A stretch of DNA of 7,991 nt from a virus (IMGVR_UViG_2695420739_000008:1-7991), one strand, 5' to 3'. Positions 1 to 7,991 are shown, numbered from the stretch's first letter. The notes: a model not told the origin generated them from the sequence alone. Numbers and translations: made by a program.

Positions 1-15
1 TAAGTGAATAAAAGT

Positions 16-58
16 AAAAACCCCGTTTGTTGGCACCAAGCGGGGTTTTGTGTTTCTG
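16..58 (+). terminator. Putative rho-independent terminator (tR'-like position upstream of the lysis-type genes)
   Basis: Seen in sequence: stem CCCCG (21-25) / CGGGG (41-45), extendable by the A-run 16-20 against the T-run 46-49, followed by TTTTGTGTTTCTG. The loop is long (15 nt), so this is not a textbook terminator. Confidence 0.4.
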
Positions 59-82
59 ACCTTGAGTAAGGCAAGGGAGAAC

Positions 83-265
83 ATGGCGAAGTATAAACGA
101 ATTCTGTTGAGGTTGACCATGAAAAACGGCCTTGAACTGAAAGCGCCTGTAACTGATGACATCAGCAGAGCACTGGCTTTTGCCATTAAGTGGGTGGCGG
201 TCGGTGTTGCTGTGTCCCCGATGCTGTATGGGCTGGCAAAACTGGTCATTGCGTTGAAATCGTGA
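83..265 (+). CDS. Hypothetical small protein (60 aa) with a basic N-terminus and a C-terminal hydrophobic segment
   Basis: ATG at 83 preceded by AAGGGAGA (short spacer); the tool ORF 50..265 is the same frame from an upstream GTG. The product [11 protein letters not shown]...[29 protein letters not shown] has one long hydrophobic stretch. It sits where a holin would be, but I do not recognise it as lambda S or S21. Confidence 0.45.
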
Positions 266-279
266 AGGGAGGATTAAGC

Positions 280-411
280 ATGTCAGACAAACTCATAACG
301 CTGGCGAAGATCCTCTGTGTAATTGTCGGCATTTCATTTTCACTAATGCTGGTTGCTCTTTTTCTTTCCATGGCCTGGATGATGTTGTCTTCGTCGGGGT
401 TGCTGGGGTGA
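280..411 (+). CDS. Hypothetical single-pass membrane peptide (43 aa)
   Basis: Strong SD AAGGGAGGA (266-274) 5 nt before ATG 280. Product [43 protein letters not shown] has a charged N-terminus and a roughly 26-residue hydrophobic core. Its stop TGA (409-411) overlaps an in-frame GTG (408) of the downstream Rz frame (GTGA). It occupies the endolysin position but is not an endolysin. Confidence 0.5.
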
Positions 412-422
412 ACATAAACCGA

Positions 423-881
423 ATGCTTTCCGCGTTTATCGTTATTCTGCTGGTGGCCTGTGGTGCGCTGTGGATGGCAACAGACCATTACCGTGATAAC
501 GCGATTACCTACAAAGCGCAGCGCGATAACAAAGCCAGTGAACTGAAGCTGGCGAACGCAACCATTACTGATATGCAGGTGCGCCAGCGCGATGTTGCTG
601 CGCTCGATGCAAAATACTCGAGGGAATTAGCCGATGCGAGAGCTGAAAATGAAACTCTTCGCGCTGACGTTGCCGCTGGTCGTAAGCGCCTGCGGATCAA
701 CGCCACCTGTCCAGGCTCCGTGCGTGAAGCCCCCACCACCTCCGGCGTGGATAATGCAACCGGCCCCCGACTGGCAGACACCGCTGAACGGGATTATTTC
801 ACCCTCAGAGAGCGGCTGATGACGATGCACAAGCAACTGGAAGGGGCACAGGAATATATCCGTACTCAGTGCCTGAAATAA
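423..881 (+). CDS. Rz: Rz-type i-spanin (inner-membrane spanin subunit), copy A
   Basis: Translation ...[44 protein letters not shown]...[37 protein letters not shown] closely matches lambda Rz as I recall it: N-terminal TM segment, coiled-coil region, conserved C-terminal Cys. The start may instead be the GTG at 408. Confidence 0.9.
634..819 (+). CDS. Rz1: Rz1-type o-spanin lipoprotein embedded in the +1 frame of Rz, copy A
   Basis: Embedded out-of-frame ORF with signal peptide and lipobox (LVVSAC), proline-rich mature part [30 protein letters not shown], nearly identical to lambda Rz1 as recalled. Confidence 0.85.
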
Positions 882-889
882 GTTTTGTT

Positions 890-1080
890 GATGCGCCGTA
901 TCGTCGCTGTATTCCCTCATTAACAGAGACCGCAGCCCGACAGGGAGACTCCTCTGCGCGAGTGTGCGGGGATAATCAAAAACGATACACACCGGGGTTT
1001 ACCGTGTTAACGGAGCGCGGCGTTGTCCCCTCATAGTCGCCTGTCCGGTGCGATGGTGGAAGAAGCCGGATGTTTATCAC
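890..1080. repeat. Conserved noncoding block downstream of the spanin genes, copy A (paralog of 7061-7250)
   Basis: About 80% identical to 7061-7250 by eye, with small indels (for example CGGGG-TTT versus CGGGTTTTT). No ORF is conserved between the two copies, so it is probably non-coding. Confidence 0.6.
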
Positions 1081-1231
1081 TATTAATTGATGACACAGAA
1101 ATGGATTCATTGAATTTCAGCACGTTTTTGTATTCGTGTTATTGAACATCTGTTTATTTTACTTTTAACATATTGATAATAAAAAGAGCTGTAAATCTTT
1201 AGATGAGTCGATTTTGTCCGGGGAAGTTCAA

Positions 1232-1372
1232 ATGGATTTTATGCTGACGGTTTCTGGTGTGGTTATCCTGTCCATTGCTTATATTGCAGATAAATATGGC
1301 TGCCATTTGTTATCACGTATTGGCGCTTATTGTTCGTTGATGCTGATTTTCTCGTCGCTTTTTTTTGAGTAA
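1232..1372 (+). CDS. Possible small hydrophobic peptide (46 aa); may be non-coding
   Basis: ATG 1232 preceded by GGGGAAG; product MDFMLTVSGVVILSIAYIADKYGCHLLSRIGAYCSLMLIFSSLFFE. Lies in an AT-rich block with promoter-like TTGAAC and TG-A-TAAT elements upstream (1142-1182). It is below the ORF-track length cut-off and there is no homology evidence. Confidence 0.25.
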   Translation: MDFMLTVSGVVILSIAYIADKYGCHLLSRIGAYCSLMLIFSSLFFE

Positions 1373-1504
1373 GTTATATTAATTATAACAAATAATTTTC
1401 TGTGTTATTTTTTCAGGCTATCCCGTCAGAGGGGAAGCCTGTACTGCCGGGGAGCGAATGGAAAACTGATGTGTCCGGTAACTGCGTGTTCTGTGAACAC
1501 CATG

Positions 1505-1690
1505 TTACTTAATTATGTAATTCATACCCGAATTCTCTGTTGACAGCCTTCTTCTGCAGGCTTCAATAACCCACGCTGAAAAGTTTCCTGAACCTTTCAG
1601 ATCAAGAGCGATGTTAATTTGTTCAATCATCTGGTTTGGAAATCGGATGTTGCGGGTTGTTGTTCTGCGGGTTCTGTTCTTTGATGACAT
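1505..1690 (-). CDS. Small Arc/MetJ-like ribbon-helix-helix DNA-binding protein (61 aa), putative
   Basis: Minus-strand ORF with SD GGGGA 6 nt before the ATG. Product MSSKNRTRRTTTRNIRFPNQMIEQINIALDLKGSGNFSAWVIEACRRRL... has a basic N-terminal tail, a beta-strand-like NIRFP, and two helices, which resembles the Arc motif (FNLRWP...) as I recall it. This is the only gene in the window on the opposite strand. Confidence 0.45.
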   Translation of the reverse strand: MSSKNRTRRTTTRNIRFPNQMIEQINIALDLKGSGNFSAWVIEACRRRLSTENSGMNYIIK

Positions 1691-1752
1691 AATGTTTCCC
1701 CATATTCAGTGTTGCTGATTTGTATTATCTGAAGTTGCTTTTACGTTAATTT

Positions 1753-1783
1753 GACGCAGATCAATTAATACGATACCTGCGTC
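1753..1783. promoter_or_regulatory. Inverted repeat GACGCAG-N17-CTGCGTC upstream of the minus-strand RHH gene (candidate operator)
   Basis: Perfect 7-bp inverted repeat (1753-1759 and 1777-1783) with an AT-rich spacer containing ATTAAT, 60-95 nt upstream of the RHH start codon on the minus strand. Confidence 0.3.
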
Positions 1784-1866
1784 ATAATTGATTATTTCTC
1801 GTGGTTTGATGGCGTACACACATGTTGTGATAAACCTTATATAGATGATAATCATTATCATTTCGT

Positions 1867-2291
1867 GGGTCCTTTCCGGCGATCCGACCGGTTACGGGGC
1901 GGCGACCTCGCGGGTTTTCGCTATTTATGAAAATTTTCCGGGAACCATGTCCGGTTTCTCTTCAAGTTAACTATATGAAAAATATAAAAACAGGTCTTCT
2001 GTGAACCGGACATGCACAAAAAATAGACATGTAAGCCGGACATGACCGGTTTTGTTGTGATTGTGAGGTGAGAGTTTTTGCGAGGTGAGGAGTGGCTACG
2101 CAGACTGAAGTTGCCAGGCATTTAAGTCTGACCGATCGCCAGCTTCGCAGATTGCAGAAATTGCCGGGTGCCCCGATATCAAATAAGCGAGGGCAACTGG
2201 ATCTGGATGCCTGGCGCGATTTTTACATATCGTATCTGAGGAGAAGTAAAAACGATGTGCCTGATGGCGATAGCGAAGACGACTATGAGGA
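1867..2291 (+). repeat. 425-bp direct repeat, copy A (cos site plus 5' 200 nt of the terminase small-subunit gene)
   Basis: Matches 7329-7753 at a constant offset of 5,462 bp with 5 mismatches (1881, 1889, 2016, 2025, 2035) by direct reading. Sequences diverge immediately outside both boundaries. Confidence 0.9.
1875..2053 (+). other. Lambda-type cos site, copy A: cosQ, cosN (1897-1908) and cosB with R3 (1946-1956, inverted), AT-rich IHF-like I1, R2 (2004-2014), R1 (2034-2044)
   Basis: GTTACG|GGGCGGCGACCT|CGCGGGTTTTCGCTATTTATGAAAATTTTCCGG matches the joined right and left ends of lambda DNA as I recall them. Three copies of a CCGGACATG-type element, one inverted, flank an A/T-rich segment, as in lambda cosB. 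Confidence 0.8.
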
Positions 2292-2352
2292 ACGCATGGC
2301 GCGGCCTTTTTTTTATGACCTGCCACTGGCAGATGGTCATCCTGTGATTTGA
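2092..2352 (+). CDS. Truncated terminase small subunit (Nu1-like residues 1-67, the winged-HTH DNA-binding region) fused to a 19-aa unrelated tail; possibly a gene remnant
   Basis: GTG start with SD GAGGTGAGGAG. The first 67 codons are identical to the gene at 7554. After position 2291 the sequence diverges and the frame ends after RMARPFFYDLPLADGHPVI. Confidence 0.65.
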   Translation: MATQTEVARHLSLTDRQLRRLQKLPGAPISNKRGQLDLDAWRDFYISYLRRSKNDVPDGDSEDDYEERMARPFFYDLPLADGHPVI

Positions 2353-2400
2353 TTCCGGTTCCGGCTTTTTAACTCTGTTCCTGTACACGGGAGAAATTCG

Positions 2401-4338
2401 ATGTCGATTAAACATTATGATGTTGTCAGGGCGGCGTCGCCGTCAGATCTTGCGGAAAAGCTGACACACAAACTGAAAGAGGGCTGGCAGCCGTTTGGTA
2501 GTCCTGTGGCCATAACCCCTTATACCCTGATGCAGGCGATTGCCGCGGAGGGGGATGTGACCACGCCAGTGGTTGTGCCCGGCACGGGGGATGGTGGCTA
2601 TCCGGGAGTGGTCACCACGGAGCCAGATTATTACTACGTTATTCCACTGGCCGGGCAGTCGAACGGCATGGCTTACGGTGAGGGGCTTCCTCTGCCGCAG
2701 ACATATGACCGTCCTGACCCGCGTATAAAGCAACTGGCTCGTCGCAGCACAGTGACGCCGGATGGCGCTCCCTGTAAATATAACGACATTATTCCGGCAG
2801 ACCACTGTCTGCATGATGTACAGGACATGAGCCGTCTTAACCATCCGAAAGCTGACCTGTCGAAAGGTCAGTACGGAACCGTGGGGCAGGGGCTGCATAT
2901 TGCCAAAAAGCTGCTGCCGTTTATACCGGCGAATGCGGGTATTCTTCTGGTTCCGTGCTGCCGTGGTGGTTCAGCTTTCACCACCGGGGCAGATGGAACA
3001 TACAGTGACGTGACCGGTGCCTCAGAGAGTTCTACCCGCTGGGGTGTGGGCAGGCCGCTGTATAAGGATCTCATCGGTCGTACAAAAGCCGCGCTGGCAA
3101 AGAACCCGAAAAATGTGCTGCTTGCCGTGGTGTGGATGCAGGGGGAATTTGACTTTGACGGAACGCCAGCAAATCACACAGCCCGTTTTACAGAAGTAGT
3201 GGAACAATATCGTACGGACCTTGCAGATATGGTGGGACAGTGCGCTGGTGGTTCTGCTGACGGTGTTCCCTGGATATGTGGAGACACAACTTATTTCTGG
3301 AAGCAGAAGAGCGAATCCACTTACCAGACGGTGTACGGCAGTTACAAAAACAAAACGGAAAAGAATATTCACTTTGTGCCGTTCATGACCGATGAGAACG
3401 GAGCAAATGTCCCGACGAACAAACCGGAAGAAGACCCGGATATTCCGGCATCAGGATATTACGGTGCGGCCTCCCGGACGTCGGCAAACTGGACGTCAGC
3501 AGACCGTGCGAGCCATTTCAGCTCATGGGCACGCAGGGGGATTATTTCTGACCGTCTTGCCTCAGCGATTCTTCTCCATGCAGGACGGACGGCTGAACTG
3601 GTGGGTGGGGAACAGGTTGTGATGCCGCCGGATGAGAAGCCGTCACCGGACACACCATCAACACCGTCAACGGACGGGAAATCAGTGACAACGCTGCTTT
3701 ATTACCGTGCAACAGAGTCAGGTGGTTTACTGAATCCGCAGGGATGGGGAGCTGAAGGAGGGCGTGCATTGGTAGTTGATGATGCAGGTGCTGCAGGAGG
3801 TAAGGCGCTGAGGTGGACCAAACAGACAGGAAGTTCCTCGTGGTTTATGCAGCATGATGTCGGTAATGGCGCAGACCTGCTGGAGAAGGGCGGGCTTATC
3901 AGTTGTCGTTTTAAAGTTGATGGCACACTGACAGCTAATCAGTACGCACTGGCGCTGTACTGGCCGGTTTCTTCACTGCCTCAGGGCGTCACACTGGAAG
4001 GTAATGCCGGTCATAACCTGCTGGCGTCGTTTTACGTACAGAGCGATGCCACAGACCTTAATGTGATGTACCACAAGGGAAATGCTGGTCAGAACACGAA
4101 GCTGGGGTCATTCGGCGCATTTGATAACGAATGGCATACGCTGGGCTTCCGTTTTGCCGGTAACAACAGTATTGAGGTGACGCCGGTCATTGATGGTAAG
4201 GACGGGACGCCGTTCATGCTGTCACAGTCACCGGTCGGCACGTTTACGGCAGACAAATTGCGCGTGACCGATATCACTAGCGGTGCGACATATCCGGTGC
4301 TGATTGAAAGTATAACAGTGGAAGTGAATAACCCGTAA
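2401..4338 (+). CDS. nanS-p: Prophage-encoded sialate O-acetylesterase of the NanS-p type (645 aa): N-terminal DUF1737-like region, SGNH/SASA esterase domain, C-terminal carbohydrate-binding-like region
   Basis: SD GGGAGA 6 nt upstream of the ATG. N-terminus MSIKHYDVVRAASPSDLAEKL...GWQPFGSP and the GQSN motif (Ser87, nt 2659-2661) are typical of SGNH-type sialate O-acetylesterases. The 645-aa size and the position immediately upstream of the S-R-Rz lysis genes match the nanS-p genes of EHEC Stx prophages as I recall them. Confidence 0.85.
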   Translation: MSIKHYDVVRAASPSDLAEKLTHKLKEGWQPFGSPVAITPYTLMQAIAAEGDVTTPVVVPGTGDGGYPGVVTTEPDYYYVIPLAGQSNGMAYGEGLPLPQTYDRPDPRIKQLARRSTVTPDGAPCKYNDIIPADHCLHDVQDMSRLNHPKADLSKGQYGTVGQGLHIAKKLLPFIPANAGILLVPCCRGGSAFTTGADGTYSDVTGASESSTRWGVGRPLYKDLIGRTKAALAKNPKNVLLAVVWMQGEFDFDGTPANHTARFTEVVEQYRTDLADMVGQCAGGSADGVPWICGDTTYFWKQKSESTYQTVYGSYKNKTEKNIHFVPFMTDENGANVPTNKPEEDPDIPASGYYGAASRTSANWTSADRASHFSSWARRGIISDRLASAILLHAGRTAELVGGEQVVMPPDEKPSPDTPSTPSTDGKSVTTLLYYRATESGGLLNPQGWGAEGGRALVVDDAGAAGGKALRWTKQTGSSSWFMQHDVGNGADLLEKGGLISCRFKVDGTLTANQYALALYWPVSSLPQGVTLEGNAGHNLLASFYVQSDATDLNVMYHKGNAGQNTKLGSFGAFDNEWHTLGFRFAGNNSIEVTPVIDGKDGTPFMLSQSPVGTFTADKLRVTDITSGATYPVLIESITVEVNNP

Positions 4339-4485
4339 GCAGGAAAAAAAGGCCGCCGGGGCAGGGAAAACAAGGAGCCAGAACCGGCGGCAAATGTCGT
4401 TATATCCAAAGCAAAACATGCAGGACACTTTTTTAACCAACAGGTATTAACGATGTCAACACCATATCAATAACCGGGAGGGATA

Positions 4486-4668
4486 ATGAGATTTGTACAG
4501 CTTATTTTATTGTATTTCTGCACGGTGGTGTGCACGTTATATCTGGTAAGTGGCGGGTATAAGGTTATCCGGAACTATATACGCAAAAAGATTGATGCCG
4601 CGGCGGCGGAAAAAATCAGCGCCAGCCAGTCAGCCGGAACAAAACCCGAAGAGCCTCTCATTTCGTAG
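4486..4668 (+). CDS. Hypothetical small membrane protein (60 aa)
   Basis: SD GGGAGGG 4 nt before ATG 4486. N-terminal hydrophobic segment LILLYFCTVVCTLYLV followed by a basic, hydrophilic tail. Confidence 0.5.
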   Translation: MRFVQLILLYFCTVVCTLYLVSGGYKVIRNYIRKKIDAAAAEKISASQSAGTKPEEPLIS

Positions 4669-4705
4669 CAACTTTCTTAACAACACCTTTCAACGAGAAA
4701 ATCCT

Positions 4706-4975
4706 ATGTCAGAAATAAAATCTCTGGTCACTGCTGAAGCAGTGAAGGACGTCCTGCGCTCTGAAGAAGTCAGAAGCGCACTGAAACAGCAACTCCGCCA
4801 GAATCTTGAGGCGCGTCTTGATGCTGAAGTGGATGCCATTCTGGATGAGCTGCTGGGGGGACCGGCTGCTCCTGAGCCTGAAGACGGCGCGGGTGACAGT
4901 GCTGTTTCAGATGGCGTTGTGTCTCAGCCTGACGGTAGCAGTGAGCCTCAGCCTGGCGGCGAAATGATGATGTAA
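4706..4975 (+). CDS. Hypothetical acidic protein (89 aa)
   Basis: ATG 4706 (MSEIKSLVTAEAVKDVL...) with a weak SD. Helical, charged N-terminal half and an acidic Pro/Gly/Ser-rich C-terminus. The tool ORF 4550..4975 is the same frame with an N-terminal extension that overlaps the preceding ORF. Confidence 0.5.
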   Translation: MSEIKSLVTAEAVKDVLRSEEVRSALKQQLRQNLEARLDAEVDAILDELLGGPAAPEPEDGAGDSAVSDGVVSQPDGSSEPQPGGEMMM

Positions 4976-5050
4976 CCATACGCAGGGGCTGTCGGTGTGA
5001 GCTGATGCCCCTCCTGTTGTTGTGAGCTTCCGGATTGCGGGAGACGGGGT

Positions 5051-5266
5051 ATGTACCAGATGGAAAAAATAACAACGGGTGTGTCATACACCACGTCAGC
5101 GGTGGGGACGGGATACTGGCTACTGCAGTTGCTGGACAAAGTCTCCCCATCCCAGTGGGTGGCAATAGGCGTATTGGGTAGCCTGGTGTTTGGCTTGCTG
5201 ACGTATCTGACAAACCTTTATTTCAAGATTAAAGAAGATAAGCGTAAGGCTGCGAGAGGTGAATAA
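5051..5266 (+). CDS. S: Class II holin (pinholin) of the phage 21 S family, with dual-start motif Met1/Met4
   Basis: 71-aa product [71 protein letters not shown] closely matches S21 as recalled: two TMDs and a basic C-terminus. Its stop overlaps the endolysin start. Confidence 0.9.
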
Positions 5267-5763
5267 TGTCGCCATCATTACGCAAGGCTGTTGCTGCTGC
5301 TATTGGTGGTGGGGCTGTTGCCATAGCGTCTGTGCTCATCACTGGTCCGAGTGGTGACGATGGCCTGGAAGGTGTCAGCTACATACCATACGAAGATATC
5401 GTTGGCGTATGGACTGTATGTCACGGACACACCGGAAAAGACATCATTCCCGGTAAAACGTATACCGAAGCAGAATGCAAAGCCCTCCTGAATAAAGACC
5501 TTGCCATGGTCGCCAGACAAATTAACCCGTACATCAAAGTCGATATACCGGAAACAACGCGCGGCGCTCTTTACTCGTTCGTTTACAACGTGGGCGCTGG
5601 TAATTTCAGAACATCGACGCTTCTTCGCAAAATAAACCAGGGTGATATCAAAGGCGCATGTGACCAGCTACGTCGCTGGACATACGCTGGCGGTAAGCAA
5701 TGGAAAGGGCTGATGACCCGTCGTGATATTGAGCGTGAAGTCTGTTTGTGGGGGCAGCAATGA
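5266..5763 (+). CDS. R: SAR endolysin (phage 21 R-type lysozyme with N-terminal signal-anchor-release domain)
   Basis: N-terminal Gly/Ala-rich weakly hydrophobic segment [19 protein letters not shown]4-lysozyme-like catalytic residues at E35, D44 and T50 ([17 protein letters not shown]). Overall match to R21 as recalled. ATGA overlap with the downstream Rz. Confidence 0.92.
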
Positions 5764-6227
5764 GCAGGGTAACCGCGATTATCTCCGCTCTGGTTATTTG
5801 CATCATCGTCTGCCTGTCATGGGCTGTTAATCATTACCGTGATAACGCCATCGCCTACAAAGAGCAGCGCGACAAAAACGCCAGAGAGCTGAAGCAGGCG
5901 ACCGCCACCATTACTGACATGCAGAAGCGCCAGCGTGCTGCTGATGCACTCGATGCTAAATACACGAAGGAGTTAGCCAATGCGAAAGCTGAAAATGATG
6001 CTCTTCGGCGTAAGCTTGATAATGGTGGTCGGGTGCTCGTCAAAGGAAAATGCTCTGTGCCATCCTCAGCCGAAACCTCCAGCGCCTCCGGCATGGGCAA
6101 TGATGCCACCGTCGAACTCTCTTCAGTTGCTGGACGAAACGTTCTCGGTATCCGGGACGGAATTATCCGTGACCAAACAGCACTGAGAACGCTTCAGGAG
6201 TACATCAGGACGCAATGCCTGAAATAA
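5760..6227 (+). CDS. Rz: Rz-type i-spanin, copy B
   Basis: [45 protein letters not shown]...[12 protein letters not shown]: the N-terminus is nearly identical to lambda Rz as recalled, with the conserved C-terminal Cys. The tool ORF from 5748 is a GTG extension. Confidence 0.9.
5980..6186 (+). CDS. Rz1: Rz1-type o-spanin lipoprotein embedded in the +1 frame of Rz, copy B
   Basis: [21 protein letters not shown]...[14 protein letters not shown]: signal peptide, lipobox (VVGC), proline-rich mature region. Same frame relationship to Rz as in copy A. Confidence 0.85.
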
Positions 6228-6259
6228 TTTTTTTGCAAATCACAAAGTCAATTTAATGA

Positions 6260-6282
6260 GCCTCGCGATGCGGGGCTTTTTT
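6260..6282 (+). terminator. Putative rho-independent terminator downstream of Rz/Rz1 copy B
   Basis: Stem GCCTCGC (6260-6266) / GCGGGGC (6270-6276), 7 bp with one G-U pair and a 3-nt loop, followed by TTTTTT (6277-6282). Confidence 0.5.
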
Positions 6283-6425
6283 ATGTCCGCAGTAAACGCG
6301 CATCTCACGCGCATATTAACGAGAGCCTTTCAGTAAGCGAGCCTGAGAAATGCCGTTATAGGTGGCGACCTCTCTCGGGCGGCTTTTCTGTGAGACAGGC
6401 TCACTTTCTAAAAGGTAAAGACGCT

Positions 6426-6950
6426 ATGAATAATCATTCAGTTATTCCAGCCTTCGACTTCCGAGAAATGGTGCAAGCCAAAAACGGAGAGGTCGTTACC
6501 ACATCCAGAAAAATTGCCAAGTACTTCGGCAAGCGACACGGTGATGTTCTCAGGAAAATCGAGCAGGTTAAGGTTGATTGCTCGCGTGAGTTTAGCCAAC
6601 GCAATTTTGCGTCGGCTGATTATATCGATGAGCAGGGCAAGGTTCGCCCGATGTACAGCCTGACGAAAGATGGCTGGATCATGGTTGTGATGGGGTTCAC
6701 CGGGAAAGCTGCTGCGGCAATCAAGGAGAGCTATATCGCAGCATTCAACTGGATGGCAGAGCAACTGAGCCGCCGCATGGCAATTGGCGAAGAAATGCAG
6801 CACCGCTACGCCATCAAAGAAACACGCTCAAAGCTGAAAGGTACGATCGGCAGTCGGTTAATGAACGAACGGAAGAGAGAGAAGCGTGTCCTGGCTGTCG
6901 AGCATGAATACATTTTGCAGGTGACACAGCCTGAACTGCTGATTAATTGA
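6426..6950 (+). CDS. rha: Rha-family phage regulatory protein (antirepressor-like N-terminal domain)
   Basis: N-terminal region ...FDFREMVQAKNGEVVTTSRKIAKYFGKRHGDVLRKIEQ...MYSLTKDGWIMVVMGFTGKAAAAIKESYIAAFNWM matches the Rha/pRha domain pattern as recalled. Start ATG 6426 has a weak SD; an upstream GTG at 6390 is possible. Confidence 0.75.
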   Translation: MNNHSVIPAFDFREMVQAKNGEVVTTSRKIAKYFGKRHGDVLRKIEQVKVDCSREFSQRNFASADYIDEQGKVRPMYSLTKDGWIMVVMGFTGKAAAAIKESYIAAFNWMAEQLSRRMAIGEEMQHRYAIKETRSKLKGTIGSRLMNERKREKRVLAVEHEYILQVTQPELLIN

Positions 6951-7060
6951 AGATGTCATTACAAAGCCTATCTACGGGTGGGCTTGATAATGGCTTATAC
7001 CCTGCACGGGATAACTTAACTGATATCCCTTTTAACGGATAAAGGTATTCAGGCCTGACA

Positions 7061-7250
7061 CATCATGCGCTGTATCGTCGCCGTATTCCCGCATTAACCA
7101 TGACCGTAGCCCGACGGGGAACTCCTCTGCGCGAGTGTGCGGGAATAATCAAAAACGATGCACACCGGGTTTTTACCGCGCTAATGATTCGCGGGTTTGT
7201 CCCTCATGCTCGCCAGTCTTGTGCGAGGGTGGAAGAAACAGGGCATGTAT
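7061..7250. repeat. Conserved noncoding block downstream of the lysis/Rha genes, copy B (paralog of 890-1080)
   Basis: About 80% identical to 890-1080 with indels. The ORFs the tool places here (7100..7432, 7197..7466) are not conserved in copy A. Confidence 0.6.
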
Positions 7251-7328
7251 TCAGGAGCGTGCGACCGTGGTCGCACGACGCTGGTCTGTCAGACATTGAA
7301 TTCATTGCGAATAAACCAGAACGCTTGC

Positions 7329-7753
7329 GGGTCCTTTCCGGCAATCCGACAGGTTACGGGGCGGCGACCTCGCGGGTTTTCGCTATTTATGAAAATTTTC
7401 CGGGAACCATGTCCGGTTTCTCTTCAAGTTAACTATATGAAAAATATAAAAACAGGTCTTCTGTGAACCGGACATGCGCAAAAAATGGACATGTAAACCG
7501 GACATGACCGGTTTTGTTGTGATTGTGAGGTGAGAGTTTTTGCGAGGTGAGGAGTGGCTACGCAGACTGAAGTTGCCAGGCATTTAAGTCTGACCGATCG
7601 CCAGCTTCGCAGATTGCAGAAATTGCCGGGTGCCCCGATATCAAATAAGCGAGGGCAACTGGATCTGGATGCCTGGCGCGATTTTTACATATCGTATCTG
7701 AGGAGAAGTAAAAACGATGTGCCTGATGGCGATAGCGAAGACGACTATGAGGA
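7329..7753 (+). repeat. 425-bp direct repeat, copy B (cos site plus 5' 200 nt of the terminase small-subunit gene)
   Basis: See copy A (1867-2291). Confidence 0.9.
7337..7515 (+). other. Lambda-type cos site, copy B: cosQ, cosN (7359-7370), cosB R3 (7408-7418), I1, R2 (7466-7476), R1 (7496-7506)
   Basis: Same elements as copy A. Differences from copy A are confined to two positions in the cosQ-proximal region and three in the R2-R1 segment. Confidence 0.8.
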
Positions 7754-7991
7754 GAAATTGCTTATTGCCAGATGGGAACTGACAGCAGAACAGGCTGTTA
7801 CACAGCAGCTAAAAAATGAGGTGTCAAAAGGAAAACTGATTGACACCGGATTCTGTATTTTTGCCCTCAGTAAGCTGGCAATGGCGTTATCCAGTACGCT
7901 TGATTCCATCCCTTTATCCATGCAGCGACAGTTTCCTGATTTAACACCGCGCCATCTTGACCATCTGAAAACCCTTATTGCGAAGGGGGCA
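7554..7991 (+). CDS. Terminase small subunit (Nu1-like), 3' end outside the window
   Basis: GTG start with SD GAGGTGAGGAG. N-terminal HTH-like region; C-terminal part ...IDTGFCIFALSKLAMALSSTLDSIPLSMQRQFPDLTPRHLDHLK resembles lambda gpNu1 (...ETAFCTFVLSRIAGEIASILDGLPLSVQRRFPELENRHVDFLK) as recalled. The ORF is still open at the window end. Confidence 0.85.
   Translation, partial: MATQTEVARHLSLTDRQLRRLQKLPGAPISNKRGQLDLDAWRDFYISYLRRSKNDVPDGDSEDDYEEKLLIARWELTAEQAVTQQLKNEVSKGKLIDTGFCIFALSKLAMALSSTLDSIPLSMQRQFPDLTPRHLDHLKTLIAKGA

Follow-up and report, generated by a model that had tools for sequence, protein, structure and literature searches.

Sialate O-acetylesterases of the NanS-p type, which are encoded by Shiga toxin (Stx)-converting and other lambdoid prophages of Escherichia coli, remove O-acetyl groups from 5-N-acetyl-9-O-acetylneuraminic acid (Neu5,9Ac2) and from mucin sialic acids, the sugar then being used by the lysogens (PMC8065619). 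Conservation of the order Q, stx2a, nanS-p, S has been reported across 59 Stx2a phages; the level of nanS-p mRNA rises with that of stx2a in the presence of mitomycin C, which the authors of that study read as control by the antiterminator Q (PMC10462455); the same late-operon scheme is given in a further report (PMC12078605). A 2026 preprint describes the phi24B homologue, gp84, as a protein that decorates the capsid, with its DUF1737 domain binding to hexons of the T=9 podovirus capsid (bioRxiv 10.64898/2026.04.10.717836). There is, then, existing documentation for the NanS-p protein and its domains, for the position of the gene in the late region and for its co-induction with stx. Here, the context of a nanS-p gene within a 7,991-nt stretch of viral DNA (IMGVR_UViG_2695420739_000008:1-7991; the whole of this stretch is referred to as the window) was examined. 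As judged from alignments with E. coli prophages, the window is the late-region end of one prophage type joined to a segment of a second type that runs from just before nanS-p, with the result that the gene is preceded by a lambda cos site, a truncated terminase small subunit gene (nu1) and a cut terminator.

The assignment of a DUF1737-like N-terminus and an esterase domain to the 645-residue product had been made in an initial annotation from the sequence alone, and was borne out by a profile hidden Markov model search. Matches to DUF1737 (PF08410; residues 4-50, nt 2410-2550; E 3.3e-15; 56 bits, the cut-off being 24), SASA (PF03629; residues 83-275; E 5e-11) and DUF6645 (PF20350; residues 494-611; E 7e-71) all exceed the curated Pfam cut-offs, the NanS-like SASA esterase part spanning nt 2617-3573 and the lectin-like C-terminal domain nt 3685-4332. 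Comparison with solved structures revealed that the chromosomal esterase NanS (YjhS; PDB 3pt5) matches residues 73-391 (E 2.5e-119), and that a C-terminal domain deposited as 'NanS-p' (PDB 6yp6) matches residues 429-644 (E 3e-96). The predicted GQSN esterase motif is present at residues 85-88 and contains the expected Ser87; in the 3pt5 alignment both the AGQSN serine block and the histidine of SHFSS (His372) are conserved, and the aligned residues of NanS, Ser19 and His301, were reportedly identified as catalytic by Rangarajan et al. in 2011. A Shine-Dalgarno-like GGGAGA (2389-2394) is located 5' of the gene. By sequence, the open reading frame (ORF) encodes an ordinary sialate O-acetylesterase of the prophage NanS-p type, comprising DUF1737, an SGNH/SASA domain and a lectin-like C-terminus.

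The same three domains are found in NanS-p proteins from lambdoid prophages with and without stx, including z1466 (NanS-p1) of 933W and vb_24B_21 (gp84) of phi24B. Full-length identity between the window protein and the Stx-phage proteins is mostly 72-76%, falling to 68% for a 933W record and to 56-59% for some others. Chromosomal NanS, which shares the catalytic domain with residues 73-391, differs in being without DUF1737 and the lectin-like C-terminus, and in belonging to the nan regulon as opposed to a prophage late region (PMC8065619). On account of the domains, the structural matches, these identities and the occurrence of an identical 645-residue protein in 184 blocks of a public protein collection, the gene is an already known allele of a known family, and the exact allele is common. 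The initial annotation had also labelled the gene a moron, which is questionable: to call it purely a moron is no longer safe, because the DUF1737 of phi24B gp84 is reported in the preprint cited above to bind the capsid. The window allele itself belongs to a lambda-like prophage with a Nu1/A terminase and a gpE/gpD head (reference locus L003), and not to a podovirus of the phi24B type; its DUF1737 (window 2401-2550) is accordingly encoded within a prophage type with gpE/gpD-type head genes.

Downstream, the locus resembles known NanS-p loci, which likewise lie directly upstream of DUF1378, DUF826 and a holin/lysis cassette; in the window, genes for DUF1378, DUF826, a P21-type holin, lysozyme and Rz/Rz1 follow directly 3' of nanS-p (4486-6227). 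The difference is immediately upstream, where known loci have Q with stx or tRNA genes, or Q, TfpB and DUF3927, and the window has cos, a truncated nu1 and a cut terminator. Genes for NanS-p proteins identical to that of the window are preceded by Q, then TfpB or TerB, and then DUF3927 in all ten of the places listed, with an insertion sequence (IS) in between in one of them. Viewed from the left-hand module, a YlcI protein identical to that encoded upstream of the first cos site was found in 136 blocks; among the ten places listed, a full-length nu1 comes next in nine, having been lost by deletion in the tenth (L021), and a 616-617-residue NanS-p is encoded upstream in nine. Several of these places also have deletions of head or tail genes downstream. 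The claim that the usual upstream context had been replaced is therefore upheld, and the present context looks like a private structural variant as opposed to a standard one.

The rarity of the join was assessed by megablast and blastn searches of 5,426 complete E. coli genomes, in which the join was spanned at none of the 19,923 places matching window positions 1500-2900 and at none of the 6,631 places matching 2240-2440, with none of the latter extending into nu1. Equivalent searches with the junction region showed the join to be absent from 50,697 phage records, and searches with short words spanning it were negative for IMG/VR viral contigs (24-mer), GTDB representative genomes (36-mer and 24-mer) and JGI metagenomes (24-mer). 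A candidate second case, in which two features of E. coli O121 WL1277 are annotated as 'terminase small subunit', was rejected, the duplication there reflecting an IS3 insertion in the downstream nu1.

The breakpoint was located by alignment with E. coli sequences and falls where the initial annotation had placed it, at 2292. Homology on the left, to E. coli nu1, stops at 2291; the L003-type nu1 allele, with A at position 2292, matches one base farther. Homology on the right, to the region 5' of nanS-p, starts at 2293, 108 nt upstream of the gene. The parents share no bases at the breakpoint (...GAGGAA/AAATTG versus ...GGCTG/CGCATGG), and the event was therefore non-homologous. On the left, window positions 1-2291 are 99.7% identical to a prophage in NZ_CP148374.1, representing what is termed here the A-type parent, in which the order is Q, tRNA-Ile/Arg/Arg, a separate 617-residue SASA esterase, holin, lysozyme, Rz, ylcI, cos, nu1, A and head genes. 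On the right, positions 2293-7991 are 99.86-100% identical to loci L003, L004, L008, L009 and L011, representing the B-type parent. These are lambda-like prophages in which N, cI, cII, O, P, the nin genes, Q (207 residues), TfpB and DUF3927 precede nanS-p, which is followed by DUF1378, DUF826, S, R, Rz, rha, cos, nu1 and A, and, after A, by W, portal, protease, gpD-like and gpE-like genes. In the A-type locus L012, Q is located approximately 8.5 kb before the position corresponding to the first base of the window, and by analogy Q is expected to lie farther upstream of the window sequence.

Two features that the initial annotation had not recorded are a cut terminator and a second cos/nu1 copy (7329 onward). 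In the standard context a strong intrinsic terminator, detected in L003, is situated 108 nt before the start of nanS-p and consists of GGCTGCGC-ATG-GCGCGGCC followed by T8; its stem in the relatives has eight pairs, seven of them G-C, and folds at -17 kcal/mol. The terminator is whole in all 12 standard loci and is truncated only in the window. The remnant was not listed by a terminator scan of the window, and folding of the window sequence gives no hairpin beside the U8 tract. As a separate observation, the upstream contexts of the L001 type (TerB/DUF3927) and the L003 type (TfpB/DUF3927) converge exactly where the terminator hairpin begins (approximately 5996 in L001 and 9888 in L003, corresponding to window 2288-2293), 5 nt from the private join; because the two contexts meet there, the hairpin is a natural mosaic boundary.

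The cos site and truncated terminase gene described 5' of nanS-p in the initial annotation are likewise present and, like the ORF and the break, cannot be put down to chance. Both cos sites match lambda exactly from cosN to +45, with no difference in the 33 nt after cosN at the first site, and nearly so on their left side; they are 5462 bp apart. Each lies within a 426-bp repeat, the two copies having the same orientation and differing at 6 of 426 nt (98.6% identity), and between the repeats is a unique block of 5,036 bp that carries nanS-p, DUF1378, DUF826, S, R, Rz/Rz1 and rha. The first nu1 copy retains 67 of the 169 codons of the Nu1 of L001 (ending in DSEDDYEE), to which 19 unrelated codons are fused. 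It gave no Pfam match at E<=0.01, and its 86-residue product is not on record in the public protein collection by exact look-up. A phmmer search of PDB with the full 169-residue Nu1 returned chance matches only (E>0.7), with no match to a solved DNA-binding domain of lambda gpNu1. With regard to annotation, the 86-residue 'terminase small subunit' is the remnant of a pseudogenized gene, and no prophage end should be placed at the first cos site. Coordinates of all features are collected in the table.

Table. Features of the 7,991-nt window (strand and supporting evidence where given).
Feature	Position	Strand	Evidence or remarks
Rz spanin, left (A-type) lysis cassette	408..881	+	Pfam Phage_lysis E 6e-50; annotated 'lysis protein' in NZ_CP148374.1
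YlcI/YnfO (DUF3950), A-type module	1505..1690	-	Pfam DUF3950 E 9e-19; annotated in L012
Direct repeat, copy 1 (cos region and first 201 nt of nu1)	1867..2292	+	Aligns with lambda cos region
cosN 12-mer no. 1, GGGCGGCGACCT	1897..1908	+	Exact lambda left cohesive end
Truncated nu1 (terminase small subunit)	2092..2352	+	GTG start at 2092, stop at 2350-2352
Recombination junction (2292/2293)	2291..2293		No microhomology; E. coli alignments
Terminator remnant (3' arm and T8)	2293..2314	+	First 5 nt of 5' arm lost at the join
nanS-p	2401..4338	+	Intact ORF, 645 residues; domains by Pfam, PDB matches to NanS and NanS-p
DUF1378 small gene	4486..4668	+	Corresponds to L003 12086-12268; PF07125
DUF826 gene	4706..4975	+	Pfam E 4.5e-34; corresponds to L003 12306-12575
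P21-type holin S, right (B-type) lysis cassette	5051..5266	+	Pfam Phage_holin_2_1 E 1e-32
Endolysin (phage lysozyme)	5266..5763	+	Pfam Phage_lysozyme E 4e-45
Rz spanin, B-type cassette	5760..6227	+	Pfam Phage_lysis E 4e-29; corresponds to L003 13360-13827
Rha-family regulator	6426..6950	+	Pfam Phage_pRha E 4e-28; corresponds to L003 14026-14550
Direct repeat, copy 2 (second cos region and nu1 start)	7329..7754	+
cosN 12-mer no. 2, GGGCGGCGACCT	7359..7370		Second cos region
Second nu1	7554..7991	+	Uninterrupted to window end; 5 mismatches in 438 nt to L003 from 15154 onward (169-residue Phage_Nu1)

Taken with the parental alignments, these features indicate, with a probability of roughly 0.7, that a standard NanS-p gene was displaced by one event, an illegitimate recombination or a deletion, that involved two lambdoid prophages resident in the same cell. 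The A-type parent would have been broken after codon 67 of nu1; in the B-type parent the break would lie 108 nt 5' of nanS-p, 5 nt into the terminator hairpin. Most simply, the DNA between two prophages of like orientation, for example arranged in tandem, would have been deleted. This would remove the A-type structural genes together with the B-type early region, and leave a hybrid prophage in which both lysis cassettes are present and the two cos sites are separated by 5462 bp. By analogy with the parents, the hybrid probably carries two nanS-p genes. A simple tandem duplication within one phage is excluded, because the stretches that precede the two cos sites are unlike in content and sequence: the first has ylcI and the second rha, and the A- and B-type Rz genes share only a 176-nt stretch at 84% identity. 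A packaged recombinant phage was similarly rejected as the origin, the A-type-specific sequence running on to the left of the first cos site. Most documented exchanges between prophages use homology between shared modules. Hybrid and defective lambdoid prophages of enterohaemorrhagic E. coli (EHEC) likewise contain mosaic late-region joins of co-resident prophages, and deletions and IS insertions are common among the relatives of the window sequence (L018, L019, L021, L023 and L005); the window join differs from most documented exchanges in having no homology at the breakpoint, and in that the segment from lysis genes to cos is duplicated as opposed to swapped. As a side observation, close relatives of the left-hand module (the A-type L018, L019 and L021, and also L023) frequently have head or tail deletions or IS3 insertions in Q, nu1 or A, and this prophage family is commonly found in a decayed state.

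Several points weigh against this origin. The join is unseen elsewhere and could be either very recent or artefactual; Q, the late promoter and a second, upstream nanS-p are proposed by analogy with relatives, the window ending inside both parents; and the nu1 alleles of the parents, which differ at 0-5 positions, are too alike for the sequence that follows the second cos site to be assigned to either of them. The most serious competing explanation is that the join arose during sequencing or assembly, and that nanS-p really follows Q, DUF3927 and the terminator as elsewhere. Its uniqueness across all of the collections searched is what would be expected of an artefact, and both flanks are multi-copy (a median of 2-4 places in each E. 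coli genome, with a maximum of 26) and hence hard to assemble. Assemblers, however, misjoin at shared sequence, and there are no shared bases at 2292/2293; the shared cos/nu1 repeat stops exactly at the join instead of spanning it, and the two sides are co-oriented and form a late region that is consistent as a whole. An artefact of ligation or of a chimeric long read is still conceivable, and overall an artefactual origin is considered unlikely. A quite different idea, that the block comprising nanS-p, the lysis genes, rha, cos and the nu1 fragment is a mobile cassette which enters cos/nu1 via the 426-bp repeats and so spreads nanS-p, draws on the presence of the 5,036-bp block between direct repeats of 98.6% identity, and on the fact that the 5' cos/nu1 region is nearly identical across unrelated prophage types. 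A moving cassette should, however, reproduce the same join, and none was found; the left boundary at 2292/2293 is non-homologous and unique, and the block is without a recombinase, inverted repeats or a target duplication, making a cassette highly improbable. Illegitimate recombination between prophages is thus retained as the best explanation, and the context of nanS-p is not a new kind of system but an isolated rearrangement, such as would be anticipated where E. coli prophages decay and recombine.

The consequences for expression depend on how nanS-p is transcribed. In lambda, the Q-modified late transcript proceeds from pR' through the lysis genes, over cos and into nu1. By analogy, Q-modified RNA polymerase starting from the A-type pR' would read the A-type lysis cassette, cos and the nu1 fragment before entering nanS-p, and the gene would stay late and induction-dependent, albeit farther from pR'. 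Read-through from the late promoter of the upstream module, as suggested in the initial annotation, is plausible on these grounds. The alternative is that nanS-p has a promoter of its own within the 108-nt leader, such that expression is independent of late transcription from upstream and the change in context is without effect. The leader is intact in the window, and lysogens lacking the chromosomal nanS grow on Neu5,9Ac2 by virtue of nanS-p alleles (PMC8065619), which implies some expression without deliberate induction. Against this, a consensus scan of the leader (2293-2400) identified no sigma-70-like promoter, nanS-p rises with stx2a upon induction in a manner attributed to Q (PMC10462455), the position of a terminator directly 5' of nanS-p at standard loci is in keeping with supply of the gene by antiterminated transcription, and spontaneous induction in a subpopulation would account for basal activity. 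A dedicated promoter accordingly seems quite improbable. With respect to read-through from upstream, loss of the terminator may raise its basal level, or may admit Q-independent transcription that crosses cos and the nu1 fragment.

The duplicated cos region also has predicted consequences for maintenance of the arrangement. RecA-mediated recombination between the 426-bp repeats would delete the intervening block and restore nu1, and a packaging run that begins at the second cos site would, according to established lambda packaging rules, end at the first, so that virions would lack the block. In that event the join would survive solely through vertical inheritance, as a scar within the prophage. 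Taken together, recombination between the repeats and packaging from the second cos to the first predict an unstable, prophage-only arrangement, which fits its rarity. A more far-reaching proposal combines these effects: the join is real, and nanS-p, deprived of its terminator, is reachable by Q-independent transcription and, lying between two functional cos sites, is at the same time dropped from virions packaged from the second site to the first, so that it constitutes a chromosome-locked, partly derepressed esterase gene. This is regarded as a rather unlikely outcome, and would, if true, provide a snapshot of a phage late gene in the process of being captured for host use. It is less likely that the 86-residue N-terminal fragment of Nu1 binds cos and interferes with packaging of co-resident lambdoid phages.

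With regard to the remaining sequence of the window, a sigma-70-like site (TTGTGA, a 16-nt spacer and GATAAT) at 1825-1852 is directed at the first cos site and the nu1 fragment, its spacer length arising from a 7-nt insertion relative to lambda. The promoter scan that identified this site gave fewer hits than chance would provide (1 found versus 3.5 expected); Q-independent transcription into nanS-p, now without its terminator, has no other candidate source. The window holds two lysis cassettes, and in both Rz genes an Rz1-like ORF is embedded in the +1 frame (634-819 and 5980-6186). These have lipoprotein-type signal ends (LVVSAC and MVVGC), indicating two complete spanin pairs, and Rz1 (PF06085) is annotated at the corresponding position in relatives. 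A 58-nt direct repeat of 91% identity is located 3' of each lysis cassette (943-1000 and 7116-7173) and is without an Rfam match; indeed, an Rfam scan of the whole window gave no match at E<=0.1.

The join represents a further example of illegitimate recombination reshuffling lambdoid prophages, with little meaning beyond the strain that carries it, for which it could serve as a marker. It nevertheless amounts to a small natural experiment, both on the role of the terminator that precedes nanS-p and on the handling by terminase of cos sites only 5.5 kb apart.

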